From the sequence record LC473039.1: a DNA stretch of 64,000 nucleotides, one strand, 5' to 3'. The stretch is from Escherichia phage L27. The position numbers were made by a program, and so were the translations under genes. The notes beneath the pieces were generated by a model. The model did not search any database. It saw only the letters and a list, made by a program, of their open reading frames with translations, and was not told where the DNA came from. Shown one piece after another: positions 795-54,340 of this stretch. How positions within the stretch are numbered: the first letter of the stretch is position 1; each line of letters begins with the position of its first letter.

Positions 795-803
795 AAAATT
801 TTG

Positions 804-896: not shown

Positions 897-1100
897 ATGG
901 CTATTATTAATGGTTTAACCATTGAAACTACACACATCAAAGATATCAAAGTTGGCGATATAGTCCTTTCCCACGGCGTAGAAAAAACTGTCACTGCAAA
1001 AGATATCAAAGAGGATTCTTTCATGGGTAGGACTCTCTTCGGTGATTCTTATTGCTTAGGCTATCTTGCAGTTTTAAAAGTTGTCAAAAATAACAAATAA
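897..1100 (+). CDS. hypothetical early protein (67 aa)
   Basis: ORF directly after conserved cassette. Confidence 0.55.
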   Translation: MAIINGLTIETTHIKDIKVGDIVLSHGVEKTVTAKDIKEDSFMGRTLFGDSYCLGYLAVLKVVKNNK

Positions 1101-2700: not shown

Positions 2701-3231
2701 ATGAACAAGTTTAAAGCTATCAACTATATTCGTTCAAATAGTGTCATGTCTAAGCCTGTTAAAGATACCTATGAATTCCGTTGCAATGGTGTACACTTTG
2801 CAACCATCACTAAATCAGAAAACGGGGCTTATTACGTTCATCGTCGTAATGTTTCGACCGTTGTAGTCTCTCACTTTATGCAAGCTGTAGCAGAATTATT
2901 ACCGTTATTCTTAGAGATTTATCTAGATGAGTGTAAAAACGTTCACAACCACGTTAAAAACCTTTTAAACGGTTATAAAATGGCTTATGAACGTTCTATC
3001 AAGTCCTTAAACAAGTTCTATAAAGCCCCTGAAAATACTGTATCAATAGCTTATGATGTAAGCGGTGAAATGGTCAGCCTCTCTAATGTAGAACAAATTA
3101 GCCTTTATGATTTACGTCCTAGCGGTTACTCTAAGACTCTTGGTGAAGGCTTATCCTTCAATATCAAGAACTTAGAAAAAACTTTAAAAGATATTGAAAA
3201 AGATATTGACGAGACAATCAAAAGTCTGTAA
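2701..3231 (+). CDS. hypothetical early protein (176 aa)
   Basis: ATG at 2701 directly after conserved RBS leader; track ORF 2608 starts upstream inside the cassette. Confidence 0.6.
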   Translation: MNKFKAINYIRSNSVMSKPVKDTYEFRCNGVHFATITKSENGAYYVHRRNVSTVVVSHFMQAVAELLPLFLEIYLDECKNVHNHVKNLLNGYKMAYERSIKSLNKFYKAPENTVSIAYDVSGEMVSLSNVEQISLYDLRPSGYSKTLGEGLSFNIKNLEKTLKDIEKDIDETIKSL

Positions 3232-3297
3232 ATTGTCAATCAACGGGGAGGCAATAACCTCCCTACTAAATAAAGTCCTTAAACTAGGAGATTCAAA
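3222..3297 (+). promoter_or_regulatory. type 2 cassette copy
   Basis: repeat. Confidence 0.5.
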
Positions 3298-3561
3298 ATG
3301 GAACACGTCGAACTGACCACAATTTTACAAATTGCAACCGACAAAGAGGATGTAGCATTATTCCACCGCATCGAAAGTGATTTGTTCAATGGTGAAATCG
3401 TTAAAGAATCTTACGAAGTTGTCGGATTCAAAGATGGTAAATCATTTGGATTCTTTGACCTCGACAAAGGCAAAGCGGTTACAAAATATGATGTTTTATC
3501 TTGTGAGATTCTGACAAAATACAACGAAAAAAGGCTTGCAACATACGCCAATATGCAGTAA
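3298..3561 (+). CDS. hypothetical early protein (87 aa)
   Basis: ORF after cassette. Confidence 0.6.
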   Translation: MEHVELTTILQIATDKEDVALFHRIESDLFNGEIVKESYEVVGFKDGKSFGFFDLDKGKAVTKYDVLSCEILTKYNEKRLATYANMQ

Positions 3562-3627
3562 ATTACTAATCAACGGGAGGCGATAACCTCCCCACTAAAT
3601 AAAACCCTTAAACTAGGAGATTCAAAA
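3553..3627 (+). promoter_or_regulatory. type 2 cassette copy
   Basis: repeat. Confidence 0.5.
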
Positions 3628-3876
3628 ATGGCAACTATCCGCGCTACTGTTAACGAGTTCGGTTTTTCCTCTCTGGATGTTAAATTTGACATTGCATGCA
3701 CTGATAACGCCTTTGAAATGGTGAAAGGTCTTATCAGTCAGACCATCAAAGATTATAATCCTTCGGATGAGTTCTGGGAGGAAACAAAACAAGAAGTTCT
3801 CAAGGATGGTTATACTTATCACTATTGGGGAGAAAAAATCGTCTCCCTGTACTACAACAAACAAGATTATAACTAA
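3628..3876 (+). CDS. hypothetical early protein (82 aa)
   Basis: ORF after cassette. Confidence 0.6.
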   Translation: MATIRATVNEFGFSSLDVKFDIACTDNAFEMVKGLISQTIKDYNPSDEFWEETKQEVLKDGYTYHYWGEKIVSLYYNKQDYN

Positions 3877-3915
3877 TCGACGCAGCGGGGCTATTTAGCC
3901 CCAGATACCTTCAAA

Positions 3916-3940
3916 GCCCCTTTTCATAGGGGCTTTTTTA
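3916..3940 (+). terminator. rho-independent terminator
   Basis: stem agcccct/aggggct followed by TTTTTT; an additional hairpin ggggctatttagcccc lies just upstream. Confidence 0.7.
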
Positions 3941-3944
3941 CGTC

Positions 3945-5610
3945 TTATCGAATCTCTATACAATCCTTTCCCTTTCCTTTCCAGAATCTTCCCACTGATT
4001 CAATAGAATCTATCTCATACCTTAAAAAGTAATAACTCTATAGCTTACTCTATAGCCCCTTATCAAATCAACTTAAATATAAGCCCATAACCCGAAAGGG
4101 AAGGGCAACCATTTAATTGGTATTGTTACCAATCCCTAAACGCTCTATAAAGCTCTATAACAGCCTTATCAACCTAACTTAAGGGATTGCATTAACTCAC
4201 CCTTAAAAGCTCTTTACAGGGCTTTATAGAGGCTTAAAAGAATCTTATAAGGGTGTAAGCTTTACCATATCGTTAGTTCCTTGTGAATATCTATAAATGG
4301 CTATGAGATAGGACTCTATCGAATCCTCTTGTTAGTGTCTTAAAAGTATGTTATAGGGACTTAAAAGTTACTTCAAAGTTACGTGAAAGAGGCTATAAAG
4401 TTACGTAAATGCTAGCCCCCTTAACATTTTCTTAACAATTTCTTAACAATCCCTACATAGTTATACTTGTTAGCCCCTTGTTAAATCTCTGTTAAGACCA
4501 TGTAAAAGCCTTGTAAGAACCTTTGACATAGCCTTAAAAGCTCCTGTAAAGCCCTATAAAGAGCTATCCATACAGTTGAGGGGTAAATACTAGGGAGAGA
4601 CTAAAAAGAACCTATAAAGAGCCTATAGAGAGCTTTTAAAAGGTATGTTTAAGGAATCACTAAGAAAGGGAAGGGAACGATAAGAAAAGAGTAGTGACCA
4701 TGTTAACAGCTTGTTAAAAAGATTAAACACTTGTTAGGAACTTGTTAATTATCTTAACAAAATAACCCTTAAAAATTAACTTCTTAGACCTTGTTAGATA
4801 TCTGTTAAGCATCTGTAAAGACTATTCAGCAACTGTTAAGAAACTGTTACACCCCTGTTAGTTCTGTTAAGAATCTGTTAAGACCTTTGAAGAGTTGTTA
4901 AAAAGGTGTTAGAACTGTTAAGAGATTGTTAATGATATTTTAAGATTTTGCAAAGTACTTGTAAGGGAGCTGTTAAGGGCTACCAAGCAGATATACATCC
5001 TAATCAGATATTTTTCAGTTCCTTCAAAGACCCTAAAAAATGACTTGATAGTCCTATTTTATAAAAATTTTAAAATTCTGAATAATTACCTATACAGTCT
5101 TTCTAAAATACAGGTAGAAACAGGCTTATAAGATACCTTGTTAGTGCCGTGTTAGACCTTGTGAGATAAGGTCTGTAAAGATATTCCTGTTAAGTTTGTT
5201 AAAACAGTCTATATAGAGGCTTAGTATTTCCTAGTGAACACCTATAGAGGGTATCATAGCTGACATAATGGGTTACTGTTAAGTAACACAGATAACCTAG
5301 AGATTAAGAGGTGTATAGGAGCTTCTAAGAGGGTATAGAGAGATGGTTAAGGTGATTGTATAGGTTGTTAAGAAGGCTTGTTAGAAGAATGTTTAGAAGG
5401 CTTATTAAAGGGCTAGTTAGAAGGGTTATACAGGGGGCTATTAAGACCACTAGATAATTACTAAGATACTATATAGTACTATATAACTGTATATATATAG
5501 AGAGTAAGATTAAGAAGGTTGTTAAGAAGGATAGATATTTTATTCACATATGATGGTGACCCAGAGGTTGGGACAACCGATAAAATTTTATAAAAAATAT
5601 AAATTTCGTA
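3945..5610. repeat. ORF-free AT-rich region dense in short degenerate words ((c/t)tgtta(a/g), ctataaag, gttagaagg)
   Basis: no ORF of 60 aa or more in any frame over about 1.7 kb; lies between convergent transcription units. Confidence 0.5.
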
Positions 5611-5658: not shown

Positions 5659-6207
5659 TTAAATCAGGTTTTCTAAAACTGTTTTTAGTGATGACTTGGT
5701 TGTCTGATAAAAATGAGTAAACCTATTGTTGTTATCGAATATCTGCATCATAACAGCATCTCCCTTGATTGGGTACACTCGGATATCATAGTGAAACCCA
5801 TTAAAGACAGCAGAACCATTACAGAACACACTGAAATCATCCACTGAGATATACTCTTCATGCCCTGTGATTTTTATACAGACACCTTTACTCGGTCTCT
5901 TAGGGTTGGTATCTTCCATCACAGACATGCTCTGTCCACCAAGAGATACCATCGTGACCACTTTACGGTTCTTCTGTTTAAAGTACATTTTAACTTTCTG
6001 TAAAGTGTCTTCATAGAACGGATAAGACCTCTCTACAAAGATTCCTTCTAATGGCTCTTTACCATTTTCAACTTCTCTGTTATGTCGTACTGCAAAGATA
6101 ATTTGTTCGAACCAGTCAAGATTTTCTTCGGAGAGTGCTTCTCGAATATCACTCCAGTCAAGGACTAGGTAGTTACCTTCAACTTCTTTTAAGTTATCTT
6201 TTTCCAT
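5659..6207 (-). CDS. hypothetical protein (about 183 aa)
   Basis: ORF; ATG at 6207 chosen because the track start at 6252 is a TTG that overlaps the upstream gene. Confidence 0.5.
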   Translation of the reverse strand: MEKDNLKEVEGNYLVLDWSDIREALSEENLDWFEQIIFAVRHNREVENGKEPLEGIFVERSYPFYEDTLQKVKMYFKQKNRKVVTMVSLGGQSMSVMEDTNPKRPSKGVCIKITGHEEYISVDDFSVFCNGSAVFNGFHYDIRVYPIKGDAVMMQIFDNNNRFTHFYQTTKSSLKTVLENLI

Positions 6208-6220
6208 AGCTATCACACCA

Positions 6221-6685
6221 TTATCGTAAAACTTGATAATCTGGTACTGCAAACTTGTTGTTATTGTTTTTAATGAGGTCTTCTTCTGTTACTAAGAATG
6301 TAAGACCACACAAGTGTGTATAGTGGCTATCATACTCAAATATTTTAAGTAGGTATTTACCATCATGATAAACAAACTCTACAACACCTTTTGCAACAAT
6401 CTTTCCAGTCTTGAAGTCTTTAAGGTGGTATACATTACCAACTTTAGGGACTGTTTTCACTTCAGGTTCTTTTAGTTTCTCACCAACTTCTACATCACCT
6501 AGTAAGTGAGAACTTTCAAACGCTACATATTGCATATAAGCTTCTGAGCATTCCCAGATAAAACAATGTACAAGAACCTTAGCAGCATGTCTTGAGCAAT
6601 TCAACTTATCACAAATATCTTTGTACATTTCATCTTTAGTTGAGTTGTCAAGCATTGCTTTTTGGACTACTTCTTTAATTTTCAT
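6221..6685 (-). CDS. hypothetical protein (154 aa)
   Basis: ORF in co-directional array. Confidence 0.55.
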   Translation of the reverse strand: MKIKEVVQKAMLDNSTKDEMYKDICDKLNCSRHAAKVLVHCFIWECSEAYMQYVAFESSHLLGDVEVGEKLKEPEVKTVPKVGNVYHLKDFKTGKIVAKGVVEFVYHDGKYLLKIFEYDSHYTHLCGLTFLVTEEDLIKNNNNKFAVPDYQVLR

Positions 6686-6737
6686 TTCGCTACCTTCTAA
6701 GTTTCTACAAAGGGGCTATCAAGTAACCCCTAAGTTA

Positions 6738-6962
6738 TTACTCAGACTTTTCAGTCTTCTTATCGGATTTCTTACTAGTCTTCTTCTCAGCTTTCTGCTC
6801 AGGTTCCTTCTCAGAAGTTGCCTTGATAACCATATCAAGAAGCTCTGATAAGTCGCTCTTCAGCAGAGTAACAGGCTGCTCATTGTAGAAGTTTTTGTCA
6901 AGATAAACTTTAAACTCTTCAATAGAAGGGAATCCAAAAATTGGTACAGGTGTCTTAATCAT
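6738..6962 (-). CDS. hypothetical protein (74 aa), Lys/Glu-rich C-terminus
   Basis: ORF. Confidence 0.45.
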   Translation of the reverse strand: MIKTPVPIFGFPSIEEFKVYLDKNFYNEQPVTLLKSDLSELLDMVIKATSEKEPEQKAEKKTSKKSDKKTEKSE

Positions 6963-14644: not shown

Positions 14645-14721
14645 CTCTGTTTAGCTCAGCTTGGTAGAGCGTTCCGTTTGGGGCGGTAAGGCCGGAGGTT
14701 CAAGTCCTCCAACAGAGACCA
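14645..14721 (+). tRNA. tRNA-Pro (anticodon TGG)
   Basis: hand-folded cloverleaf; 7-bp acceptor ctctgtt/aacagag, T-loop ttcaagt, CCA encoded. Confidence 0.7.
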
Positions 14722-14728
14722 AATTAAT

Positions 14729-14806
14729 GTTCCAGTAGACAAAATGGTATAGTCACCACTCTTTCAAAGTGGATATTTGAGGGTTCAAATCCCTTCTGGA
14801 ACGCCA
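14729..14806 (+). tRNA. tRNA-Glu (anticodon TTC)
   Basis: acceptor gttccag/ctggaac, anticodon loop ctttcaa, CCA encoded. Confidence 0.7.
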
Positions 14807-14810
14807 GTTT

Positions 14811-14889
14811 TGACAGAAGACCAATTACAGCAAACTTAATCTTATTCATCTGAAGGTAAATCGGACAAAGAAGAGACTTGGTCTGGTCA
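14811..14889 (+). ncRNA. structured RNA-like element A (Y-RNA-like family)
   Basis: terminal helix tgac/gtca + AGAA/UG internal loop + GACCAA/TTGGTC helix; conserved 'tacagcaa' box. Confidence 0.5.
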
Positions 14890-14898
14890 TTAAGAATT

Positions 14899-14975
14899 GC
14901 GGGTATAGAGAAAGGGCGTCTCACATGTCTCATTAGCATGGTATCGGCAGGTTCGACTCCTGCACCCGCCTCCAA
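14899..14975 (+). tRNA. tRNA-Met-like (anticodon CAT), 1:72 unpaired
   Basis: anticodon loop ctcatta, T-arm gcagg/ttcgact/cctgc, CCA encoded; first acceptor pair mismatched. Confidence 0.6.
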
Positions 14976-14978
14976 ATT

Positions 14979-15049
14979 TACAGAAGACCGTTTACAGCAA
15001 AATTGAATGAAATTTTTAGCGGAAAAATTGAAAGATACGGTCTGGTAAT
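14979..15049 (+). ncRNA. structured RNA-like element B (Y-RNA-like family)
   Basis: terminal helix ttac/gtaa + AGAA/UG loop + GACCGT/ACGGTC helix. Confidence 0.5.
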
Positions 15050-15058
15050 ACTAAACAT

Positions 15059-15132
15059 GGTTAGGAAGCACATAAGGTATGTGCGGTCGCCTGTTAAGCG
15101 AATGGCACAGGGTTCGAATCCCTGACTAACCG
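15059..15132 (+). tRNA. tRNA-Asn (anticodon GTT)
   Basis: T-arm caggg/ttcgaat/ccctg, anticodon loop ctgttaa; CCA not encoded. Confidence 0.65.
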
Positions 15133-15144
15133 CAAAATTTAAAT

Positions 15145-15232
15145 GTGTCGTTATCCCGTAGATGGTAGCGGTGGGGACTGTAAATCCCTTGTCATTGAGA
15201 CTCGGTAGGTTCGACTCCTACACGGCACACCA
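15145..15232 (+). tRNA. tRNA-Tyr (anticodon GTA), long variable arm
   Basis: anticodon stem-loop gggga/ctgtaaa/tccct, T-arm gtagg/ttcgact/cctac, acceptor gtgtcgt/acggcac. Confidence 0.65.
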
Positions 15233-15254
15233 ACACTTAGCGAGATACTTAGTT

Positions 15255-15683
15255 ATGAGAGATGAAGTATACAAATCACAACTTGGTATGAGTTTGGGAA
15301 CTGCACAAAACAGACTAGTAAAAGATTTGCTATTCGATTTTATATGTAAGACAAATCAAAATAGATGTTTTCAGTGCGGAAAAGAAATGACTAGGGATGA
15401 TTTCTCTATCGAGCATAAGATTCCGTGGAGACATAGTGAGAATGCAAAAGAGCTTTTCTTTTCACTAGATAATATTTCTTATAGTCATCTTAAATGTAAC
15501 ATGAAAGCAGCAAGACCAGCACAGATAAGTGAAAGAAAACATAAAACAATTAAACACGGAACTGCGTATAGTTATTTTAAAGGCTGTAGATGCGATGAGT
15601 GTAGGTTGGCTAAGAATGCTGAGAGTAGAAGAAACTATAGTCCAGAAAGACGTAGGAAGAAGTATCTAAGAAATGGCACATGA
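15255..15683 (+). CDS. HNH homing endonuclease (142 aa)
   Basis: CFQCG...SIEHKIPW...N...H..CN HNH motif; basic C-terminus; embedded in tRNA cluster. Confidence 0.75.
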   Translation: MRDEVYKSQLGMSLGTAQNRLVKDLLFDFICKTNQNRCFQCGKEMTRDDFSIEHKIPWRHSENAKELFFSLDNISYSHLKCNMKAARPAQISERKHKTIKHGTAYSYFKGCRCDECRLAKNAESRRNYSPERRRKKYLRNGT

Positions 15684-15687
15684 ATTT

Positions 15688-15763
15688 GGGGTATTAGTTT
15701 AGACGGGTAAAATACGGGATTGTCTCTCCTGAGCCGCGAGTTCGATTCTCGCATACCTCGCCA
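15688..15763 (+). tRNA. tRNA-Asp (anticodon GTC)
   Basis: acceptor ggggtat/atacctc, anticodon loop ttgtctc, CCA encoded. Confidence 0.75.
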
Positions 15764-15821
15764 ATTTTGAGAGGGCTATTTAGCCCCTCCCTTAAAGGGT
15801 TCTTACGAGTATCTTTTAAAG

Positions 15822-15903
15822 GAGCAGAAGACCAAATACAGCAAGAACGTATGAAAATTTCAAGCCAATTTAATTTTGAAAAATTTAAAACTTGGTCTGG
15901 CTC
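15822..15903 (+). ncRNA. structured RNA-like element C (Y-RNA-like family)
   Basis: terminal helix gagc/gctc + AGAA/UG loop + GACCAA/TTGGTC helix. Confidence 0.5.
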
Positions 15904-15910
15904 AACAAAT

Positions 15911-16047
15911 TTACAGAAGACCGTTTACAGCAAAACTTAAACAATCTATTTCTCGGTAAAGAAAAGGCGAAGGTTCGATTCCTTCACTCGGCAGATGTCG
16001 AGTTGGTGTAATGGTAGCACTTAAGATGATAAACAACGGTCTGGTAA
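15911..16047 (+). ncRNA. structured RNA-like element D with circularly permuted tRNA-like module (candidate YrlA-type Y RNA)
   Basis: same terminal helices as A-C; interior has T-arm gaagg/ttcgatt/ccttc, then acceptor-3' actcggc, 4-nt linker, acceptor-5' gtcgagt (7-bp complement) and D-arm gtgt/aatggta/gcac. Confidence 0.5.
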
Positions 16048-16189
16048 TTATCTTTGTAGATAAGTTATTAAGCTTACCTGTGAGTATGCGACCACAAAGG
16101 GTGAAAGGGTAAATTCTAGATTTAAACCCAACAAGGCACATCGCTACAGACCTTAAGCAAGTCTGGGTAGCTTATCTACAAAGATAATT
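16046..16189 (+). ncRNA. structured element F bounded by a 19-bp perfect inverted repeat
   Basis: aattatctttgtagataag (16046-16064) is the exact reverse complement of 16171-16189; about 106-nt interior with internal hairpins. Confidence 0.45.
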
Positions 16190-16193
16190 TAAT

Positions 16194-16269
16194 GGAAGTG
16201 TAGCAGAATGGTGATGCGGTAGACTTTTAATCTGACAGGCGATGGGTTCGAATCCCTCCACTTCTACCA
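16194..16269 (+). tRNA. tRNA-Lys (anticodon TTT), atypical T-stem
   Basis: acceptor ggaagtg/cacttct, anticodon loop cttttaa; T-stem has A.C and U.U mismatches. Confidence 0.55.
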
Positions 16270-16273
16270 AAAT

Positions 16274-16350
16274 GGTTCAGTCGCAGATAAGGTAATGCAA
16301 GGGTCTCATAAGCCCTATGAATGTGGGTTCGATTCCCATCTGAACCTCCA
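16274..16350 (+). tRNA. tRNA-Met or Ile2 (anticodon CAT)
   Basis: acceptor ggttcag/ctgaacc perfect, anticodon loop ctcataa, CCA encoded. Confidence 0.7.
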
Positions 16351-16367
16351 ATTTATAGGTGATACTT

Positions 16368-16853
16368 ATGATTTGTGCCAACAAAGATTGCAGAAATGAA
16401 GCCGTTAAAGGTGGAAAATTTTGCTCACGCTCTTGTTCTGCAAAAGTGAACAACAAGAAACACCCAAAGAGAAGTCAGGAAGGCTCTTGCCATTCATGCG
16501 GAAAGGTAACGCCAAAAGCGAGAAAATACTGTGACGAATGTATTGCAGGTGGAGTCATGAAAAAACATAAGACCCATCATGAAAAAAGCAAAGCCAAATC
16601 ACTGCACGTTAAAAAGTCTCGTGACAGACTGAAGAAGGCTTTAGTTGATTACAAGGGTGGTTGTTGTTCAATTTGTGGTTACAATAGGTGCATAAAGGCT
16701 CTAGAGTTTCACCACTTAGACCCTAAGACAAAAGACTTCACAGTAAGTAAAAAACACTACTCACTGGCTACAATGCAGTCTGAAGTTGATAAGTGTGTCT
16801 TGCTTTGTGCAAATTGCCACAGAGAAGTACACGAAGGGGTAACAATGCTGTGA
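16368..16853 (+). CDS. HNH homing endonuclease (161 aa), Cys-rich N-terminus
   Basis: CSICGYN...LEFHHLDP...CANCHREVH HNH motif; stop codon lies inside the first bases of tRNA-Ile. Confidence 0.75.
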   Translation: MICANKDCRNEAVKGGKFCSRSCSAKVNNKKHPKRSQEGSCHSCGKVTPKARKYCDECIAGGVMKKHKTHHEKSKAKSLHVKKSRDRLKKALVDYKGGCCSICGYNRCIKALEFHHLDPKTKDFTVSKKHYSLATMQSEVDKCVLLCANCHREVHEGVTML

Positions 16854-16922
16854 AAGCACATATGGATGTGCATTCGGCTGATAACCGAAAGGCAGAAGGT
16901 TCAAATCCTTCTCACAGTACCA
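16847..16922 (+). tRNA. tRNA-Ile (anticodon GAT)
   Basis: clean cloverleaf: D-stem gcac/gtgc, anticodon stem ttcgg/ccgaa, T-stem gaagg/ccttc, CCA encoded. Confidence 0.8.
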
Positions 16923-16937
16923 ATTTCAATAAAGTTG

Positions 16938-16966
16938 TTGACATTGAGATGTGACTACTTTATAGT
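16938..16966 (+). promoter_or_regulatory. sigma70-like promoter (TTGACA-17-TATAGT) inside tRNA cluster
   Basis: consensus -35 and good -10 with 17-nt spacer. Confidence 0.65.
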
Positions 16967-17170
16967 AACCTTAGTTTTCGTTGCGTAGCGTCTATTTTGC
17001 AAATTTAAAATAAATGCAAACGACAATGTTTTTCTGGCAGTAGCTTGATAGGCTAAACACCAGTGAGGTCTTCCAATCCCTCATCAAAGAATTTGGCGTA
17101 CTCGCCCACGGTATGATTAATAAGGTGGGCATCTTTAAGGGCTTTCTAAGAGAGTCTTTAAAGATAATTA

Positions 17171-17252
17171 CGGGGCGTATCTCAGCGGTCTTCTAAACCG
17201 CCGTTAACCGAGTAAGTGGAGTATGCGGGTTCGAGTCCTGCCGCCTCGACCA
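17171..17252 (+). tRNA. aberrant tRNA-like gene (possible anticodon TCT), D-arm missing or unrecognisable
   Basis: good T-arm and 7-bp acceptor (cggggcg/cgcctcg) with CCA; stem-loop gcggt/cttctaa/accgc; only about 7 nt where the D-arm should be. Confidence 0.4.
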
Positions 17253-17395
17253 ATTTAGTTAGCAGATTACTTAGACGACCTAAGCGGGTCTTCCTGTAGG
17301 GAGGTGGTCTGTATCTCATGTTTTCCAGAACATGTAAATAATCTGAGAAGGGGCTTTACAGTGTTGAGATAATACGGTAAGCTTCGAATTATAGT

Positions 17396-17478
17396 ATGGG
17401 ACGATGTTAAGACTCTAAGGCATGAGCAACGGCTTCCAACACCGTTTCAAAGGGGTTCAACTCCTCCGTCCCATGCCA
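17396..17478 (+). tRNA. tRNA-Trp-like (anticodon CCA) with about 8-nt insertion before D-stem
   Basis: perfect 7-bp acceptor atgggac/gtcccat, anticodon loop ttccaac, T-loop ttcaact, CCA encoded; expanded D region. Confidence 0.45.
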
Positions 17479-17491
17479 AAGTCTTATTAGG

Positions 17492-17581
17492 GGTAGGTAG
17501 CGGCTAATGGTAGCCAAACAGTCTTGAAAACTGTTGCCACTGTAGAGATACGGTGAGGGTTCGACTCCTTTACTTACCGCC
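17492..17581 (+). tRNA. tRNA-Ser (anticodon TGA), long variable arm
   Basis: anticodon stem acagt/actgt perfect, loop cttgaaa, 20-nt variable arm. Confidence 0.75.
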
Positions 17582-17735
17582 TAATAAGATTTTACACCGT
17601 CCATGCTTGCTCGCATTTTCGGTTTATCCCTCGTGTATTGTCGTACACTGATAAAGCACCTAGTAGGTGTCACGGAGAAGAGATAATATCAAGCTCTCCA
17701 AAGGTTCTAGTCACCGGATTAAACAAGACTATGCA

Positions 17736-17758
17736 AAGACCAAATTAGGTCTTTTTAG
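17736..17758 (+). terminator. terminator-like hairpin with T-run inside tRNA cluster
   Basis: aagacc-aaatta-ggtctt followed by TTTTT. Confidence 0.45.
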
Positions 17759-17835
17759 AGGGCTTCTAAGGTTATTACAGCTTGTTGTGGAACCTTGTTG
17801 CTTAGGTTCTTAGAAGTTCTCTAAAAAGATTTAAT

Positions 17836-17913
17836 GGGAGATTGACGGTAATTGGTAAACCTATCTCGCTTAGAACGAGATGTTTGAGGGTTCGAATCCC
17901 TTGTCTCCTACCA
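17836..17913 (+). tRNA. tRNA with Leu-type anticodon TAG but short variable arm
   Basis: anticodon stem tctcg/cgaga, loop cttagaa, T-arm gaggg/ttcgaat/ccctt, CCA encoded. Confidence 0.55.
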
Positions 17914-17920
17914 AATTAAT

Positions 17921-17996
17921 GCAGGTGTAGCAAAATGGTTATGCGGCTGACTCTTAATCAGTAAGACGATGGGTTCAATTCCCTCCACCTGTACCA
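17921..17996 (+). tRNA. tRNA-Lys (anticodon CTT), atypical T-stem
   Basis: anticodon stem gctga/tcagt, loop ctcttaa; same unusual T-stem as the TTT Lys tRNA. Confidence 0.55.
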
Positions 17997-18002
17997 GACA
18001 TT

Positions 18003-18078
18003 GGGGATGTAGTTTACATGGTTAAAACATAAGTTTTGCAAACTTAAGTACAGGGTTCAATTCCCTGCTTCTCCACCA
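18003..18078 (+). tRNA. tRNA-Ala (anticodon TGC)
   Basis: G3.U70 wobble pair present; D-stem gttt/aaac, anticodon stem taagt/actta perfect. Confidence 0.8.
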
Positions 18079-18084
18079 ATTAGT

Positions 18085-18159
18085 GCATCCATAGTTTAAA
18101 CGGGAAAATTGCAGTCTTCCAAACTGAGGTTGAGGGTTCGATTCCCTCTGGATGCTCCA
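18085..18159 (+). tRNA. tRNA-Gly (anticodon TCC)
   Basis: perfect acceptor gcatcca/tggatgc, T-arm gaggg/ttcgatt/ccctc. Confidence 0.75.
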
Positions 18160-18165
18160 AATAAA

Positions 18166-18242
18166 GCTGCTTTCGTATAATTGGCTATTACACATCCCTT
18201 GTAAGGATGGAAATGCAGGTTCGAGTCCTGTGAGCAGCACCA
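18166..18242 (+). tRNA. tRNA-Thr (anticodon TGT)
   Basis: anticodon stem catcc/ggatg perfect, loop cttgtaa, CCA encoded. Confidence 0.75.
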
Positions 18243-18245
18243 ATT

Positions 18246-18333
18246 CAGAGGTCAAGTGAAAGACCGCTGGTGTCAACTGAAGACCGTAACAAATTCCACG
18301 GAGTTGAGTTAGCGGCACAACTTCAGACCTCTT
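18246..18333 (+). ncRNA. structured RNA-like element E (truncated family member with nested helices)
   Basis: outer helix agaggtc/gacctct; inner mini-element 18275-18307 has caac/gttg + ccgt/acgg helices and 'gaagaccgt' box. Confidence 0.4.
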
Positions 18334-18337
18334 TCAC

Positions 18338-18412
18338 ACTCGCTTAGTTTATATGGTAAAACATCACCCTTACAAGATGAAGAAAAAGGTTCAAGTCCTT
18401 TAGTGAGTACCA
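18338..18412 (+). tRNA. tRNA-Val (anticodon TAC)
   Basis: D-stem gttt/aaac, anticodon loop cttacaa, T-arm aaagg/ttcaagt/ccttt. Confidence 0.7.
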
Positions 18413-18413
18413 T

Positions 18414-18491
18414 GTTCCAGTATCCCAATTGGCAGAGGATGCAAGCTCAAACCTTGTATTAGTGACGGTTCGAATCCGTCTTGGAACACCA
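18414..18491 (+). tRNA. tRNA with Leu-type anticodon CAA but short variable arm
   Basis: anticodon stem gcaag/cttgt, loop ctcaaac, T-arm gacgg/ttcgaat/ccgtc perfect. Confidence 0.55.
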
Positions 18492-18510
18492 ATTTTAAGA
18501 GGCTATTTAG

Positions 18511-19068
18511 ATGAGATATTTGAAGTATGCTTCATGGATTTTCCTAGCTTTACTAGAGCCATTTGCAGCAACCCTAGCAGTCATCTTAGCACCTTTCGTA
18601 GTCCCATTCTACAGTGAGAAGAAAGGGCATCTACCTTTTGGATTCAGATGGATGGAGACCTATGACAACCCGATTGATGGTGATGAAGGCCACGTTAAAA
18701 GATGGGCTAAGATTAGAAAGATTGGTAAGCTGGGTGTCTACATGCAGAGAGTTGGGTGGCTCTGGAGAAACAAAGCTTATAACTTCTCTTACCATGTATT
18801 AGGAAGAGATGTAAAAGATGTTACTAAGTGGAAAGGTAATATCAACGTAAGTTCTAACCCTGAAGATAATCAAACAGGTTATCTCCTAATGTGGAACAGA
18901 AATGCTTGGGGTTTATTTGCTTTTATCCCATCAATTAAAGTCTTTGGTAAACAGTTTTACTGGAGAATTTATATTGGATGGAAACTAAAAAGTGTTGTCC
19001 CAGAAGAAAGAGCATTCTCAAGGGAAAGAGTTATGTTGGCATTCTTTATTCATCCACTGAGAAAGTAA
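18511..19068 (+). CDS. hypothetical membrane protein (185 aa) inside tRNA cluster
   Basis: N-terminal hydrophobic segment (WIFLALLEPFAATLAVILAPFVVPF); ORF between tRNA genes. Confidence 0.55.
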   Translation: MRYLKYASWIFLALLEPFAATLAVILAPFVVPFYSEKKGHLPFGFRWMETYDNPIDGDEGHVKRWAKIRKIGKLGVYMQRVGWLWRNKAYNFSYHVLGRDVKDVTKWKGNINVSSNPEDNQTGYLLMWNRNAWGLFAFIPSIKVFGKQFYWRIYIGWKLKSVVPEERAFSRERVMLAFFIHPLRK

Positions 19069-19076
19069 AGATTTAA

Positions 19077-19152
19077 AGGGGATTAGTTTACAAGGTTAAA
19101 ACCTCGGTCTTTGAAATCGAAGAAGTTGGTTCAATTCCAACATCCCCCGCCA
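19077..19152 (+). tRNA. tRNA-Gln (anticodon TTG), A1.C72 mismatch
   Basis: anticodon loop ctttgaa, T-arm gttgg/ttcaatt/ccaac perfect. Confidence 0.65.
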
Positions 19153-19154
19153 AT

Positions 19155-19233
19155 GCTCCATTACTCCAATTGGCAGAGAGGCCAGACTTAAAATCTGTGT
19201 TATGTATCGGTTCGAATCCGATATGGAGTACCA
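19155..19233 (+). tRNA. tRNA with Leu-type anticodon TAA but short variable arm
   Basis: anticodon loop cttaaaa, T-arm atcgg/ttcgaat/ccgat perfect. Confidence 0.55.
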
Positions 19234-19238
19234 AATTT

Positions 19239-19314
19239 AGCGGTATAGCATAACTGGCAATGCAGCAGTCTCTGAAGCTGTCCTATTAAGGTTCAAATCC
19301 TTATGCCGCTGCCA
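19239..19314 (+). tRNA. tRNA-Gln (anticodon CTG)
   Basis: anticodon stem gcagt/gctgt (two G.U), loop ctctgaa, T-arm taagg/ttcaaat/cctta. Confidence 0.7.
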
Positions 19315-19345
19315 CTTCTAAGGGTTCTTACGAGAGTCCTTAAAT

Positions 19346-19421
19346 GTGGCCTTATCATAAATGGTAATGACCCATGCTGTGAACATGGTCTATACGGGTT
19401 CAAATCCCGTAGGTCACCCCA
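19346..19421 (+). tRNA. tRNA-His (anticodon GTG)
   Basis: D-stem tcat/atga, anticodon stem ccatg/catgg perfect, T-arm acggg/ttcaaat/cccgt perfect. Confidence 0.8.
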
Positions 19422-19426
19422 ATTTA

Positions 19427-19502
19427 TAGTCCAAGTAGCTTATATGGTAAAGCGCGTGTCTGAAAAACATGAGAAGAGGGTTCAAATCCCACTGGACTAC
19501 CA
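19427..19502 (+). tRNA. tRNA-Phe (anticodon GAA), boundaries approximate
   Basis: D-stem gctt/aagc, anticodon loop ctgaaaa; acceptor tagtcca/tggacta. Confidence 0.6.
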
Positions 19503-19518
19503 ATTTCAAAGGTGCTTA

Positions 19519-20253
19519 ATGAAAGAGATGACAGAACAAGGTAAGGAGATTTTTAATCTCTTAAAAACCGGTAAAGGGTTTTCTAACCCACTTATTACTG
19601 GTGCAGCAGTTCTCGGTGGAACCGTAGCTGCCTCTACATCACTTGTAAACTCTATTAGTTCTGTAACAGACCCTACAATGAAGGATAAACTTGTTGCTGC
19701 TGGACTTACAACAGTCCTTCTAAACAGCTTTACAACAAGCCTTACAAGCACTACAGCAACTACTAAGACCCTAACAGACTACGGTCAAAAGTCTATTGAT
19801 GAGTTTTCATCACGTATGCAGGTAGCAAAGGGATACTCCAATGTTATGGGTGCAGCAGGAGAACAAGTTGGTTGTACACCATTCAGTGGTATTATGGGTG
19901 TTGCTACAGAGTATGGTCAAAAAGCTATTGACACGATTAACAGTACACTGGATAGTGTTAATGATGTGTTAAGTGACTTACAAGATGCTATTGATAAGGG
20001 TCTTGATACTGTTTCTGATTTAGCTAACCAAGCTGTAAGTAAAATTAATGAAGGTATTTCAAAGATTACAGCTTATGCAGATGAAGTTGTGCAGATGATT
20101 GAAGAAGAAGCTGCACTTATTGCAGAGTACCTTAAAACGAATATCAATGGGTTCTTAGCAGGTATCTTACCAGACTGGTTTGATGATGCTTGCAAAACTG
20201 GTGTAATTGACACTATTGCAACACCAGAAATGAAGAACGCATTACAGAAATAA
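19519..20253 (+). CDS. hypothetical Ser/Thr-rich protein (about 245 aa) inside tRNA cluster
   Basis: ORF from ATG at 19519; the upstream part of the track ORF overlaps tRNA genes and is discounted. Confidence 0.5.
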   Translation: MKEMTEQGKEIFNLLKTGKGFSNPLITGAAVLGGTVAASTSLVNSISSVTDPTMKDKLVAAGLTTVLLNSFTTSLTSTTATTKTLTDYGQKSIDEFSSRMQVAKGYSNVMGAAGEQVGCTPFSGIMGVATEYGQKAIDTINSTLDSVNDVLSDLQDAIDKGLDTVSDLANQAVSKINEGISKITAYADEVVQMIEEEAALIAEYLKTNINGFLAGILPDWFDDACKTGVIDTIATPEMKNALQK

Positions 20254-20254
20254 T

Positions 20255-20347
20255 GGAAGATTAACCCTAAAAGGTAAGGGAGCAGTTTGCTAAACTGCCA
20301 GTAGCTGAGAAATCGGTGTACCAGTTCAAGTCTGGTATCTTCCTCCA
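20255..20347 (+). tRNA. tRNA-Ser (anticodon GCT), long variable arm
   Basis: perfect acceptor ggaagat/atcttcc, anticodon stem gcagt/actgc, 21-nt variable arm. Confidence 0.8.
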
Positions 20348-20351
20348 ATTT

Positions 20352-20427
20352 GAATCCGTGACAGAAATGGCTATGTGCCTGTCTGCAAAACAGGTTTATA
20401 AGGGTTCGAGTCCCTTCGGATTCTCCA
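20352..20427 (+). tRNA. tRNA-Cys (anticodon GCA)
   Basis: perfect acceptor gaatccg/cggattc, anticodon stem cctgt/acagg. Confidence 0.8.
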
Positions 20428-50835: not shown

Positions 50836-51369
50836 TCAACTTAGTTTTGCAAACTCTCCGTGGAGTTTAATAGCAGCTTCACAGTAAGCTTTATGGGCTT
50901 CTTCAGGTGTGTCATGGTGACCTAAAAACATCTTCTTACCTTTATAACTTATCTGTGCGACCCACTTACCAGACTTCTTCTTAAGACTTACACCCTTGTA
51001 CCCAGATTTATTGGTGACTGGTTTACCTTTATTCCAAGCACTTTGAAAATCATCTGCTTCCCTTAAGTTTACAATCCTGTTGTCAAGTGAGTCTCCGTTG
51101 ATATGGTCAATGATACCTTTTGGCATCTTGCCATACACGTAAAGCCATGCGAGTCTGTGTGCTTTATGTGCTTTCTTGTCAAAATAGATACTAATCTGTT
51201 TATGACCACTTGAATCAGTCTGGATATTACCTGCCACCTTTCCTGCATAATTACTGTTAAAAACACTAACAGCTCTTGATTTACCTTCTCTACGAAGCCA
51301 AGTAAAGACCCCTGTTTCGGGGTCATAGTGCAGCAGCTCCTTTAAACGTTTTTGTAAAATTAAATCCAT
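50836..51369 (-). CDS. HNH homing endonuclease with AP2-like DNA-binding domain
   Basis: 'IDHINGDSLDNRIVNL' HNH_3-type motif and 'YKGVS...KWVAQISYKGKKMFLGHH' AP2-like region; immediately downstream of intron-containing polymerase gene. Confidence 0.75.
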   Translation of the reverse strand: MDLILQKRLKELLHYDPETGVFTWLRREGKSRAVSVFNSNYAGKVAGNIQTDSSGHKQISIYFDKKAHKAHRLAWLYVYGKMPKGIIDHINGDSLDNRIVNLREADDFQSAWNKGKPVTNKSGYKGVSLKKKSGKWVAQISYKGKKMFLGHHDTPEEAHKAYCEAAIKLHGEFAKLS

Positions 51370-51372: not shown

Positions 51373-51929
51373 TCAATGTACCTCATACCAGCTCTTACCA
51401 ACCTTTGCTGTACCAGTTACAAGTGTTTCTTTCCTCAAACCTAAGTTTTTTGAAGCTTGTCCATACATCCAGTCAGCAATTGCTTTCATATCCTGTGTCA
51501 TACCCTCTGGACATTCCCAACTATTTTCATCGTGATATGCCAGAAGTAACCTTGCTCCGATAGCTGGTTTTCGAGCATTCAGTTTTGTCAGGCCATCTTC
51601 ACAGGCTTTTCTTGCTGCTAGGTTGATGGCCTCATTCTGAATCTGTGCTTCCGAACTCATCAGGAGGTAGTTCAGTAGTTTATGTGGAGATTTGCACCAT
51701 ATCCATGCTCCAGCGACCCTGATATAACCACCTTTAGCAATTGAAGAATTCTTCCCAAAAACCTCTTCCAGAGCCTTTTTAGACGCCTTAAAATCGGCTT
51801 CTAAGCTATCAAGTAACTTCTTAATCTTTGGAAGACGCATATAGTAAGTTTGTTTAGTCAATGCACCTTCTTCCGTAGATGATGCTTTGATAGTTTTTGC
51901 AAACTTCTCGTCACCTGCACCGAACAATA
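51373..51929 (-). CDS. DNA polymerase (family A, T7-like), exon 2
   Basis: contains motif B continuation 'FGAGDEK' and motif C 'YHDENSWECPEG'; joins in frame to exon 1 after removal of intron. Confidence 0.8.
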
Positions 51930-52197
51930 CATCTGGTCAATACACTCGCAAGGTGTACCAGTTCTCTTATGAACTTCTCCGCATTTCTACGGAGTGTCGG
52001 ACTATATCACGTAGTAGTAATACTACCGTTGCACTTGGGAATGGTCATTAGCTTACCACCCTACTCTACTCAGTTCATACATTAAGTACGCTTTTCGATA
52101 GTCTCTGAACGTTCCTCTTAAGAGGCTTCGCTGCTGATTACCATATCTTTACAGACTTAGGCTTCCAGCAATTCACAACGTTTTACATGCGCCACTG
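51930..52197 (-). mobile_element. group I intron (268 nt, ORF-less) in DNA polymerase gene
   Basis: conserved P (tgctggaagc), Q (aatcagcag), R (gttcagagactatc), S (gatatagtcc) elements in correct order; P1 with U.G at 5' splice site; terminal G before exon 2. Confidence 0.8.
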
Positions 52198-54340
52198 ACG
52201 CATAGATACCATTCTTAGCCTTCTTACGACCTTTTGTAATCTCGTGAAGAAGTTCCTCATCCTGTGTCTCCCTACAACGAACAATATCTTCTTCCTTGTT
52301 CAGACCAAAGTAAATACTGTTCAGTGTATGTGCATCAGTCCCTGTGTAGACTTCATAGAGGTCGTTCTCAGCATCATAACGAAGATACTTGTCAGTTTCT
52401 GGATTAAGATACTTATCGAGATGCTTGCAATAGTATCTGCCATCCTCTTGCTTAGTGAACTCTACTGACTCTTTACCCTCAGTTACTGCTTTGGTGAAGT
52501 CTTCATCACCCATAAAGTTACAAAGAAGAACAAGCTGTGCAGAGTTCTGGTCAACTGAAACGATGTTAGTCCCCTCCTCACAAATCCACACCTCCCTCAT
52601 AGGTGCTCCATAGACAGCAGCACCAGACGGTACGTTTACAATACCATACTGTGTCATACGTCCAGTTGAAGTACCGAACACCATCGCACCAGCACTAAGG
52701 CGACCATCAGGACGAATCTGGTTCAACCAACCTTTTTCATCATCCTTTGAGTTCTCAATAGTTCTGCGTCGGTGCATCAAAGTGTAGTACTTAGCAATCT
52801 TCTGTCCAAGCTCACCTTCAATCGTATCATAAGATGATTCAGTAAGTTTTGGTGAAGTACGGATTAAGCAAGGCTCAAGCAAATCTGTGTACTTCTTCAC
52901 AGACCAGTTATGCTCAATGTACTGTACACCTTCATGTTCAACATAACTCAAACCACACCGCTCAACCATTTCCTGCCACTTAGGATGCTTTGTAATCATC
53001 TTTTTATTGTCTTTGAAACGACAAACTTTGACAGGGCGACCATCTGAGTCTTTCTTGTAGTTCCAGTCATCTGGAATCCAACCAACTGATTTCAAGTAGT
53101 CTTTAACAACTGCTACCTGAGTCATACGAGAAACTTCGAACTCAATTGGTGTATATGGTGCATCAATCAAACCTGTGTAGCGACTTGACTCAAGTTCAAA
53201 GTGGTTAACAACGTGACTGTTATAGTACTTCACAGTTTTGACTGTTTTTACTGGTTTCCAGTCTTTGCATTTCTTACCAATCTTTGCGTTCAACTCATTG
53301 CAAATTGCACGAGCATCCTTCATTGCTACAAAACCCTCCTTGTACTCTTCACCAGTTACAGAGTTGGTTGGCGTATAGCAATTTCTCTTTTCAATGTTAA
53401 AAATCTTTGTAGTTGGCTTACCAAATGGCTTGATTTCGTATGTCTGCATCTCACCGTTACGCACCTGCTGACGATACTTTGTCTTAGGATACTTGGTAAT
53501 TCTCTTCAGTCCATCTACATGACCAAATGTTTCAACATACTCATTCCAAGCTTTTGCAAACTCTTCTCCAGTAACTTTACCTTTGGTCTTAATAGTTGGA
53601 GGTAGATGTGGTTCAACCTCTGAAGCAAGCTCATTAGTCAACTTGTCAAGTTCCTTCACATGGAACTCCATAAGCTCCTTATCAGCTTTCCAACCATTAA
53701 TAGCTTGTTGACTCATCCAGAAAGATGTTTCTTTAGCTCGCATGTAGGTTTCATAAGTGTCTATGCCACACTTCTTAAGCTTGAGATACTCATTATCAAG
53801 TGCCCGTTTAGTTTTGGCGTTAATACGGATATCTTCTACAACACGAGTGAAGATTTCTGCATTCCACACACCCCAATACTCAATCTCTGGCTTACGAACA
53901 CCAACACGAGCACCCCATGCAGCCAAACCATGAGCACCTTTATAACCTTTTGGAGTTGGTCTATCCATCCACTGAACACGAGACTGGATAAGAGAATCCT
54001 GAAAGAAATTACTCCACGGTTTACACTTTGGATTATCAAAGTTCCATAAATCCGGTGCAATGTGATTGAAAACCCACCAGTCATAACCGAGACCGTTATG
54101 GATGCAAAGACGTTTTGCCTTTAACGCAAACTCAACACCTTCACGCAAACCCCCCTTAATGTACTTGGTATACTTGTGACCGAGGATAGGCTCATCTGTA
54201 AAGACCCATACAGGTGGCTCTTCATCGTCAGATTTATAGTCTGCGAAAGCCATTACGTGCACTTTAGTGAACTCAAGGAGTAAACCATCAGTTTCTGTAT
54301 CACCAACCAAATGTAAGTTTTTAAAATCTACGTTTTCCAT
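52198..54340 (-). CDS. DNA polymerase (family A, T7-like), exon 1
   Basis: 3'-5' exo motif 'DTETDGL', T7 gene 5-like segments, motif B start 'KKAKNGIYA'; track ORF continues 13 codons into the intron to an in-frame stop. Confidence 0.8.

Follow-up and report, generated by a model that had tools for sequence, protein, structure and literature searches.

A 268-nt group I intron without ORF within motif B of a Felix O1-like phage DNA polymerase gene

In Escherichia phage L27 (LC473039.1), whose genome belongs to the Felixounavirus group (Felix O1-like myoviruses), the reading frame for the family A DNA polymerase breaks within a catalytic motif. In the window, i.e., the whole analysed stretch of 64,000 nt, the ORF of the first exon covers 54340..52157 on the minus strand. 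It encodes ...KKAKNGIYA, continues for 13 codons (SVAHVKRCELLEA) and terminates with UAA at 52159..52157; the next ORF in frame starts 229 nt past this stop, at 51927, with (L)FGAGDEK. [quoted passage not shown] The ORF list and the sequence agree with the break as described. Very probably, an IA-type group I intron of 268 nt without an ORF interrupts the gene at the codon equivalent to T7 F528, is spliced out of the transcript and was acquired laterally. The gene is composed of the following parts:

54340..51373, minus strand: family A DNA polymerase gene, intron included
52198..54340, minus strand: exon 1, 2143 nt (ORF list and sequence; Pfam DNA_pol_A on the spliced product)
51373..51929, minus strand: exon 2, 557 nt with the stop codon (ORF list, sequence, comparison of the spliced product)
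51930..52197, minus strand: group I intron, 268 nt, IA type, no ORF (Rfam RF00028, intron-less relatives, covariation)
52157..52159, minus strand: in-frame UAA at intron nt 39-41, in the internal loop of P5, expected to halt ribosomes reading on from exon 1

The boundaries of the intron were established by comparison with intron-less alleles in the phages bumzen, AN17P8 and Z31 and in several IMG/VR contigs. Exactly 268 nt are absent from these alleles, the exons are 98 % identical, and the encoded peptide is ...NGIYALLFGAGDEK. Only the junction of 52198 with 51929 regenerates the peptide ...KNGIYALLFGAGDEK of the intron-less relatives; 39 in-frame combinations offered a U at -1 and a G at the intron end, and this one alone restores ...YALLFGAGDEK. 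The splice junction had been placed correctly in the earlier note. Exon 1 ends with ...AAU GGU AUC UAU GCG U, the final U (52198) being the 5' splice-site U, and exon 2 starts with UA UUG UUC GGU GCA GGU GAC GAG AAG, which predicts a ligated junction at the DNA level of ...TATGCGT/TATTGTTCGG. Removal of the 268 nt creates a stop-free ORF of 899 aa, the length that had been anticipated. The spliced protein is identical to the uninterrupted polymerase of bumzen in 894 of 899 residues (99 %) without a gap, and scored 52.8 bits with Pfam DNA_pol_A (PF00476; cut-off 34.3). The motif B pattern (R..K...Y...[YF]G) is whole once the exons are joined: RKKAKNGIYALLFGAGDEK aligned gap-free to T7 RDNAKTFIYGFLYGAGDEK, residues R518-K536 of T7 DNA polymerase, which form motif B (the O-helix), and the spacing of the motif is thus restored as claimed. 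The codon split by the intron corresponds to F528 of T7 within this helix, which we take to be about position 764 of Pol I.

The intervening sequence was recognised as a group I intron by the Rfam search that had been suggested for it: Intron_gpI (RF00028) matched 51977..52209 on the minus strand with 64.9 bits (gathering score 50, E 3.5e-14), spanning the full model from 1 to 253. The ORF list holds no minus-strand ORF of at least 40 aa inside the 268 nt, in line with the size and the lack of coding capacity proposed before. The core elements P, Q, R and S occur in the order tgctggaagc, aatcagcag, gttcagagactatc and gatatagtcc. Their asserted complementarity is borne out, as P and Q pair as P4 (UGCUGG/UCAGCA) and R and S as P7 (G-GACUA/UAGUC-C with a bulged A), with the 5' strand of P7 located within R and its 3' strand within S. 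The fold comprises P1 to P10 with P7.1/P7.2 and P9.1/P9.2, while P2 is absent. Intron nucleotide n is window position 52198 - n in the following elements:

52186..52204, minus strand: P1 hairpin, exon nt -7..-1 UAUGCGU (52204..52198) with guide nt 6-12 GCGCAUG (52192..52186)
within 52132..52180, minus strand: P3 5' strand (nt 18-24), J3/4 AAU, P4 (nt 28-33 / 61-66)
within 52132..52180, minus strand, between the P4 strands: AA/AA J4/5 loops, P5 (nt 36-38 / 56-58), P5a (nt 42-45 / 50-53)
52109..52131, minus strand: P6 (nt 67-69 / 87-89) and P6a (nt 73-76 / 81-84, loop UUAA), both with covarying pairs
within 51999..52105, minus strand: P7 5' strand (nt 93-99), P7.1 (nt 108-122), P7.2 (nt 137-161)
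within 51999..52105, minus strand: P3 3' strand (nt 165-171), P8 (nt 172-187), J8/7 GUGAUA, P7 3' strand (nt 194-199)
51930..51994, minus strand: peripheral 3' domain with P9 (nt 204-221, GAAA tetraloop), P9.1 (nt 223-238), P9.2 (nt 239-263) and the terminal A-U-G

Both splice sites have the features of group I introns that the earlier note had pointed out. The end of exon 1 (...AUGCGU) pairs with intron nt 6-11 (GCGCAU), placing the splice-site wobble U52198.G52192 within a P1 of 7 bp, and the last base of the intron, directly before exon 2, is the G at 51930. A P10 is possible between nt 1-5 of the P1 loop, CAGUG (52197..52193), and UAUUG of exon 2 (51929..51925). Both exon flanks and the guide were unchanged in all 14 intron copies examined. 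The flanks TATGCGT and TATTGTT, which are needed for P1 and P10, are common to all intron-containing alleles, but variable in intron-less alleles; those of the L034 type read TATGCGT/TACTGTT at the junction.

Covariation supports the core. The alignment with distant introns was structure-guided; with MAFFT alone, P3 and P8 were misregistered in their 3' strands, and the limits of P8 and P6 were drawn in the light of compensatory changes. Compared to introns in other phage genes, 10 of 20 pairs in P4-P6 had changed on both sides, and the share of paired cells was 91 %, against 25-46 % in the slid controls. Related introns in other phage genes revealed for P3-P8 and P7 changes on both sides in 34 of 51 pairs, and 95 % of the cells were paired (29-48 % in slid controls). 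Alignments by a covariance model are biased towards the modelled structure; P7, which is exempt as it lies outside the model, was still 94 % paired. Among 12 distinct Felixounavirus copies, 24 substitution types were observed, 16 at unpaired positions and eight in helices with the pairing kept; none affected P1/P10, P4 or P7. The peripheral 3' domain had no substitution among 13 comparison copies. P1, P10 and P9-P9.2 are invariant among the Felixounavirus copies and rest therefore on sequence complementarity instead of covariation; the hairpins P9, P9.1 and P9.2 are present in the centroid fold. The tetraloop of P5a is GUAA in the window and GAGA or GGAA in relatives, a GNRA loop in every case. 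The minimum free energy had a z-score of -1.25 against shuffled sequences, hence the stability by itself is not distinctive, while the centroid fold recovers most helices. P7.1 and P7.2, a criterion for subgroup IA2, are present between P7 and the 3' strand of P3 and covary where alignable. In this subgroup a short G-U-A linker joins P7.1 and P7.2 (PMC3428280). The linker as drawn here has 14 nt (AACUGAGUAGAGUA) with GUA immediately before P7.2, and therefore the intron is filed as IA, IA2-like. The linker segment is conserved in the introns of cr3_1, MIF8 and 19-1-2.

Removal of the intron from the transcript is to be expected, because the polymerase is essential and selection preserves the intron structure. 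The intron is probably self-splicing. The folded transcript would present the U.G pair at U52198 in P1, and an exogenous guanosine bound in P7 would attack the 5' splice site. P10 would align exon 2, and the freed 3'-OH of exon 1 would attack after the terminal G at 51930. Ligation of ...UAUGCGU to UAUUGUU... would yield a single mRNA for the 899-aa polymerase. By its UAA after 13 codons, the intron may bar ribosomes from most of the core.

A polymerase made of two separately translated polypeptides, which assemble without RNA splicing, is suggested by most GenBank records, where two CDS are both listed as "DNA polymerase", and the TTG at 51927 is a formal start for exon 2. We consider this highly improbable: the break is located in the middle of the O-helix, neither a Shine-Dalgarno sequence nor an in-frame ATG precedes exon 2, and the product of exon 1 would carry 13 extra unrelated residues. 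Moreover, the intervening 268 nt are a high-scoring group I ribozyme with a structure under purifying selection, and precisely this segment is missing from 99 %-identical uninterrupted homologs. The absence of an internal ORF, and nothing else, would fit a degraded intron within an inactive polymerase gene. This reading has a negligible chance of being correct: of about 260 Felixounavirus records from isolated, viable phages, about 95 contain the intron, the two exons are undamaged and share 99 % identity with functional homologs, and not a single helix-breaking substitution occurred among the 12 distinct copies. A genuine intron may also splice efficiently only together with translation, an RNA chaperone of phage or host, or a maturase-like factor. 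The in vivo splicing of T4 introns depends on translation, the window intron lacks P2, and its stop codon inside the core (nt 39-41) lets ribosomes reach into P3-P5. Such a dependence is nevertheless unlikely, since the comparable P2-less IA2 polymerase introns of Pf-WMP3, PhiI and W31 self-splice in vitro (PMC3428280) and every core element is intact in the window, as are the GNRA tetraloops. An intein was rejected: a stop occurs 13 codons into the insert, and the insert is an RNA ribozyme without an ORF of at least 40 aa. A Pfam search of the spliced polymerase detected no Hint domain.

The intron was present at the same site in about 95 of about 260 Felixounavirus records, roughly a third, and is a mobile element that moves about within this genus. 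In the P6 loop, some copies contain an ORF of 160-161 aa of the Endonuclease_7 family (PF02945), either intact or broken, on an insert of 512-537 nt after nt 77, i.e., between window positions 52121 and 52120. Coexisting at one site are empty alleles, introns with an intact ORF, with a broken ORF (101 + 52 aa) or with a clean ORF deletion (311 nt), and the minimal form of 268 nt. The 311-nt variant obtained 62.3 bits with RF00028. At the gathering threshold, Rfam missed the 805-nt ORF-containing form (GEC_vB_B1, L002), the sole long form scanned, and the cr3_1 intron; our own covariance models were used in its place. The intron in the crAss-like cr3_1 polymerase was rejected as a case of the same insertion site, its exon context being unrelated.

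The exons next to the intron differ in their origin from the remaining gene:

51913..52219, minus strand: intron with co-converted exon flanks (mismatch distribution versus other Felixounavirus loci)

The foreign exon tract has a length of 39-56 nt, comprising at minimum -22..-1 of exon 1 and +1..+17 of exon 2 and at maximum -37..+19. Compared to the intron-less locus L011, 14 mismatches were found in 44 nt of the tract and 18 in 1213 nt outside it (Fisher p = 1.4e-13). Three intron-containing loci (L002, L008, L018) had no mismatch in the tract, but about 16-17 % elsewhere. The flanks thus resemble those of diverged intron-containing phages, not those of the window's own lineage. The patch is the footprint of homing (co-conversion): the window's lineage gained the ORF-less form laterally, together with some 40-55 nt of exon flank. 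Presence/absence polymorphism at one site and co-conversion of the flanks characterise a mobile intron; a homing endonuclease of its own is not encoded by the 268-nt copy.

A candidate for an endonuclease supplied from outside is located next to the polymerase gene:

50836..51369, minus strand: free-standing HNH_3 + AP2 homing-endonuclease-like gene, 177 aa (Pfam HNH_3 54.5 bits, AP2 48.1 bits)

This gene begins 3 nt past the polymerase stop codon, and is a neighbour of the intron, separate from it. In collaborative homing, the HNH-AP2 endonuclease would mobilise the ORF-less intron by cleaving motif B sites that have no intron, and a resident intron would shield its carrier. Similar gene layouts are gene 5.3 of phage T3 with PhiI and F-CphI with psbA in cyanophages. 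The HNH-AP2 gene was downstream in all seven ORF-less intron copies examined, and the window intron came with a tract of a mere 39-56 nt. We regard this mechanism as unlikely. The same HNH-AP2 allele (97-100 % identical) resides beside an intron-less polymerase gene in L003, L004, L006, L011 and L012, other HNH alleles accompany intron-less genes with a junction identical to that in HNH-free genomes, and long-form introns are often without a downstream HNH gene. The HNH-AP2 gene varies between presence, absence and different alleles without regard to the intron. Across 40 loci no clean association was obtained; linkage, itself confounded by common ancestry, blurs the comparison. As the driver of the acquisition, the Endonuclease_7 gene within the long-form intron is the simpler candidate. 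Slightly less doubtful, though still improbable, is that the ORF-less intron continues to move between co-infecting Felixounaviruses by an endonuclease acting in trans, either HNH-AP2 or the Endonuclease_7 of the long form. If true, the genus would offer a natural single-site system for following the proposed route from an ORF-less intron with a free-standing endonuclease towards a composite mobile intron.

The group I intron is real, an ordinary mobile element that was known before from phage Meda, and the results do not alter how group I introns are understood. They add a position in motif B (the O-helix) to the published sites in family A polymerase genes, and present the stages of the homing cycle as a clean natural series in which the co-conversion tract is mapped. 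An annotation issue emerges, as most of the about 95 intron-carrying Felixounavirus records annotate the polymerase as a pair of separate proteins. Correct gene models matter here: Felixounaviruses are widely proposed for the biocontrol of Salmonella and E. coli.

Searches of the literature for introns in Ounavirinae and Felixounavirus yielded only three statements: a sentence on Meda, an unspecific remark on "two introns" in SPJ41 and the absence of introns in Felix O1. The 2019 genome announcement of Salmonella phage Meda (MH586731; Microbiol Resour Announc, PMC6486253) mentions the intron in one sentence, without class, structure, insertion site or splicing test. The Meda intron has 268 nt, is 97.4 % identical to the window intron and occupies the same site; the polymerase CDS is annotated as a two-piece join over 2968 nt (2700 + 268). 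Introns are absent according to the original paper on Felix O1, and the polymerase Gp96 of this phage is uninterrupted. Introns of subgroup IA2 are known from the family A polymerase genes of PhiI/W31 (T7-like), SPO1/SP82/Bastille, Pf-WMP3 and phiL7 (PMC3428280). The window intron resembles them in its IA2-like, probably self-splicing ribozyme, in the essential polA gene as host and in the insertion into a conserved catalytic motif. It shares P7.1 and P7.2 with these introns, and P2 is missing as in Pf-WMP3. The endonuclease ORF, when present, is in P6a, likewise in PhiI, W31 and Pf-WMP3 (PMC3428280). Differences concern the site, which in the known polA introns corresponds to positions 674, 676 and 881 of E. 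coli Pol I (PMC3428280) and here to T7 F528 in motif B, and the ORF type, since the relatives of the window intron encode an Endonuclease_7 (PF02945) and not an HNH enzyme of the I-HmuI/I-TslI type. The polymerase gene of Escherichia phage 19-1-2 (Avunavirus) contains an unannotated group I intron within the same segment of the O-helix (...TRSGGKGITYG/IMYGAQAPK); it is a phase 0 insertion, located 1 nt upstream from where the Felixounavirus intron sits. Its ORF follows the Q element as in the ORF-bearing Felixounavirus copies, and its core is weakly similar to the Felixounavirus intron (27.9 bits, model R1). Measured against the homing cycle of invasion, endonuclease decay and endonuclease loss, the Felixounavirus site is a clear natural example with nothing unusual.

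The family A DNA polymerase gene in the window is interrupted, as the earlier note had proposed. The exon 1 reading frame (54340..52157, minus strand) ends with KKAKNGIYA, 13 unrelated codons and a UAA at 52159..52157; in the minus-strand ORF list the polymerase frame reopens at 51927 with (L)FGAGDEK, 229 nt further on. The four group I core strings were all found in the order claimed, and the Rfam search that had been suggested matched Intron_gpI over the full model length at 51977..52209 (minus strand) with 64.9 bits (gathering score 50) and an E value of 3.5e-14. The interruption is confirmed and is not a product of chance. Two unsupported ORFs opposite the intron are most likely spurious.

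Features of the window
54340..52198, minus strand: exon 1 of the polymerase gene
52197..51930, minus strand: group I intron, 268 nt
51929..51373, minus strand: exon 2
51887..52085, plus strand: ORFs of 54 and 62 aa opposite the intron strand
50836..51369, minus strand: free-standing HNH_3 + AP2 gene (Pfam), starting 3 nt past the polymerase stop
14645..20424, plus strand: 23 clustered tRNA genes, all above the Rfam gathering score

Intron-less relatives (phages bumzen, AN17P8 and Z31 and IMG/VR contigs L011-L016), with exons 94-98% identical to those of the window, hold the same exon sequence in 483 nt versus 751 nt, exactly 268 nt being absent, and encode ...KNGIYALLFGAGDEK... over the gap. 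All in-frame, stop-free pairings of a 5' site after U with a 3' site whose last base is G were enumerated, and the predicted junction 52198|51929 was the sole one among 39 combinations yielding ...NGIYALLFGAGDEK. The spliced coding sequence comprises 2700 nt and 899 aa, the latter anticipated as an approximate length, and its product is assigned to DNA_pol_A by Pfam. It is identical to the uninterrupted bumzen polymerase in 894 of 899 residues without gaps; the annotated start of the latter lies 7 codons farther upstream. The placement in motif B was also right: GRKKAKNGIYALLFGAGDEKF aligns gap-free to residues 517-537 of T7 DNA polymerase, TRDNAKTFIYGFLYGAGDEKI, in solved structures. Therefore the intron interrupts the codon (U|UA) that corresponds to T7 F528 in the O-helix, between Y526 and Y530. 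Every detail of the earlier note that could be checked held, and the intron would presumably be removed by self-splicing.

The intron has an IA-type (IA2-like) architecture. P1 is formed by exon UAUGCGU and intron nt 6-12 and includes the U.G pair predicted for the splice site, while P2 is absent.

Further elements of the intron fold (nt n = window 52198 - n)
P10: exon 2 UAUUG with nt 1-5
P3: nt 18-24 with 165-171
P4: nt 28-33 with 61-66, AA/AA J4/5 loops alongside
P5 and P5a: capped by a GNRA tetraloop
P6 and P6a: nt 67-89
P7: nt 93-99 with 194-199, bulged A
P7.1, P7.2 and P8: P8 at nt 172-187
P9 (GAAA loop), followed by P9.1 and P9.2: intron ends in G at nt 268

Related intron cores were detected by BLAST in unrelated genes of other phages: Erwinia phage MIF8 (RNA polymerase gene), Shewanella phage 1/4 (nrdA), Pseudoalteromonas phage PH357, Acinetobacter phage YMC13/03/R2096, Staphylococcus phage S-CoN_Ph8 (endolysin gene), and Escherichia phage 19-1-2 and crAss-like phage cr3_1 (both DNA polymerase gene). 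Two covariance models built from Felixounavirus sequences were used to realign these introns, with slid pairing partners as controls. In P4-P6 both sides had changed in 10 of 20 pairs, and 91% of the cells were paired versus 25-46% with slid partners. The values for P3-P8 and P7 were 34 of 51 pairs and 95% versus 29-48%, with a covariation score that no shuffle reached; P7 was 94% paired although it had been added as a pseudoknot outside the covariance model. Among 12 distinct Felixounavirus copies, 24 substitution types were seen, 16 of them at unpaired positions and 8 in helices. Pairing was kept in all eight of the latter, e.g., U.A to C.G in P8 and C.G to U.A in P6a, and none of the 24 fell in P1/P10, P4 or P7. 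The P5a tetraloop was GUAA, GAGA or GGAA, in all copies a GNRA loop. These patterns indicate a ribozyme still selected for folding.

Several of the other phages seem to carry introns of their own. The polymerase gene of 19-1-2 (OK181858) seems to contain two unannotated candidate group I introns (~335..1068 and 1435..1655+). The first, with an internal ORF, lies in motif B (...GITYG|IMYGAQAPK) 1 nt upstream of the Felixounavirus site, which makes the O-helix a recurrent intron target; the core of the second closely resembles that of the Felixounavirus intron (85 bits, core model R2). In cr3_1 (MT774381, ~2989..4068) the polymerase is annotated as two CDS about 1 kb apart; the gap holds a 237-aa ORF and a group I core with 75% identity to the window intron over P3-P7.1, a core that Rfam did not report at its gathering threshold. 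YMC13/03/R2096 has two tandem core matches (1439..1644 and 1829..1982 of the locus), with an HNH gene on one side and the gene for the large terminase subunit on the other; the DNA in which they lie is unannotated, and the terminase gene may be split by an intron. The closest core outside the genus, in the schitovirus MIF8 (1497..1689 of the locus, 122 bits with R2), is located just past an 'RNAP2-like protein' CDS, a position suggesting that a phage RNA polymerase gene holds an intron missing from the annotation.

By megablast the polymerase region retrieved 260 phage records (best match 97% identity), nearly all from Felixounavirus, the Felix O1-like myoviruses of Salmonella, Escherichia and Shigella. 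The tRNA cluster of the window fits Felix O1-like genomes, 22 tRNAs being reported for Felix O1. Two GenBank records, MG065664 and MG065668 ('Campylobacter phage A132/A126'), were 96.5% identical to the window across the whole polymerase region and 99.6% in the intron; both belong to Felixounavirus, and their Campylobacter host label therefore probably reflects mislabelling or contamination. An intron occupied the same site in ~95 of ~260 database records and in 6 of 29 Felix-like IMG/VR contigs, always flanked by ...TATGCGT|TATTGTT..., the sequence needed by P1 and P10. Intron-less alleles showed at least four other junction haplotypes, all synonymous; one of them, in L034 (TATGCGT|TACTGTT), is 1 nt away from the flanks of intron-containing genes. 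Variation among the copies was almost confined to the P6 loop.

Forms of the intron
268 nt, minimal form: the window, REP8, L017 and Meda
801-805 nt, long form: insert after nt 77 with an Endonuclease_7 (PF02945) ORF of 160-161 aa, which has a GGAG ribosome-binding site of its own
780 nt: Endonuclease_7 ORF broken into 101 + 52 aa, in VpaE1
311 nt: long form from which the ORF was lost by a clean deletion between CCTAA repeats

The 804-nt copy of L035 has a 179-aa reading frame in place of the 160-161-aa ORF. Together the P6-loop variants show a homing cycle at its different stages, all at a single site. The one 805-nt ORF-containing copy scanned, that of GEC_vB_B1, was not detected by Rfam at the gathering threshold, thus automated ncRNA scans may under-report the long form in Felixounavirus.

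Between the window and its closest intron-less relatives, 14 mismatches fell within -22..+17 of the junction and 18 in the other 1213 nt (Fisher p = 1.4e-13). The same tract had no mismatch to three intron-containing loci (L002, L008, L018), whose polymerase genes are otherwise ~16-17% diverged. The intron therefore arrived in the window's lineage by recombination, along with 39-56 nt of donor exon; the upstream limit of the tract falls between -37 and -22 and the downstream limit between +17 and +19. Co-conversion of this kind is the classical mark of homing. Of the five residues that differ from the bumzen polymerase, one (A versus S) is encoded inside the tract. The HNH_3 + AP2 slot was occupied or empty irrespective of intron status over 40 loci. 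Its alleles in relatives are 47-100% identical (about 50%, 73%, 84% and 97-100%), and that of the window also adjoins intron-less polymerase genes; the slot looks like an independently mobile cassette. In gene layout alone it recalls published collaborative-homing systems, the locus data being neutral on such a role. Also downstream of polymerase, two relatives, GEC_vB_B1 (5954..6805 of its locus) and warpig (4999..5311), have a DNA ligase gene that the annotation divides into two CDS with an overlap, the result of a frameshift or another interruption.

Phage genes for family A polymerases are classic hosts of group I introns, and the intron in the window is a known element type that had been recorded in a sister phage, Salmonella phage Meda (PMC6486253). 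The SPJ41 paper names 'two introns' among the ncRNAs; for Felix O1 introns were reported absent and Gp96 uninterrupted with 906 aa (PMC3185647). A literature search on Felixounavirus introns found no structure, site, variants or splicing test. Added here are the boundary proof, a fold supported by covariation, the motif B site, the series of endonuclease-gene states and a mapped co-conversion tract. By the standard equivalence we take T7 Y526 to be Pol I F762, which places the intron at about site 764. This site is therefore missing from the list of E. coli Pol I positions 674 (SPO1, SP82, Bastille, Pf-WMP3), 676 (phiL7) and 881 (PhiI, W31) (PMC3428280). The polymerase introns of PhiI, W31 and Pf-WMP3 share the general layout of the window intron, and that of Pf-WMP3 likewise lacks P2 (PMC3428280).
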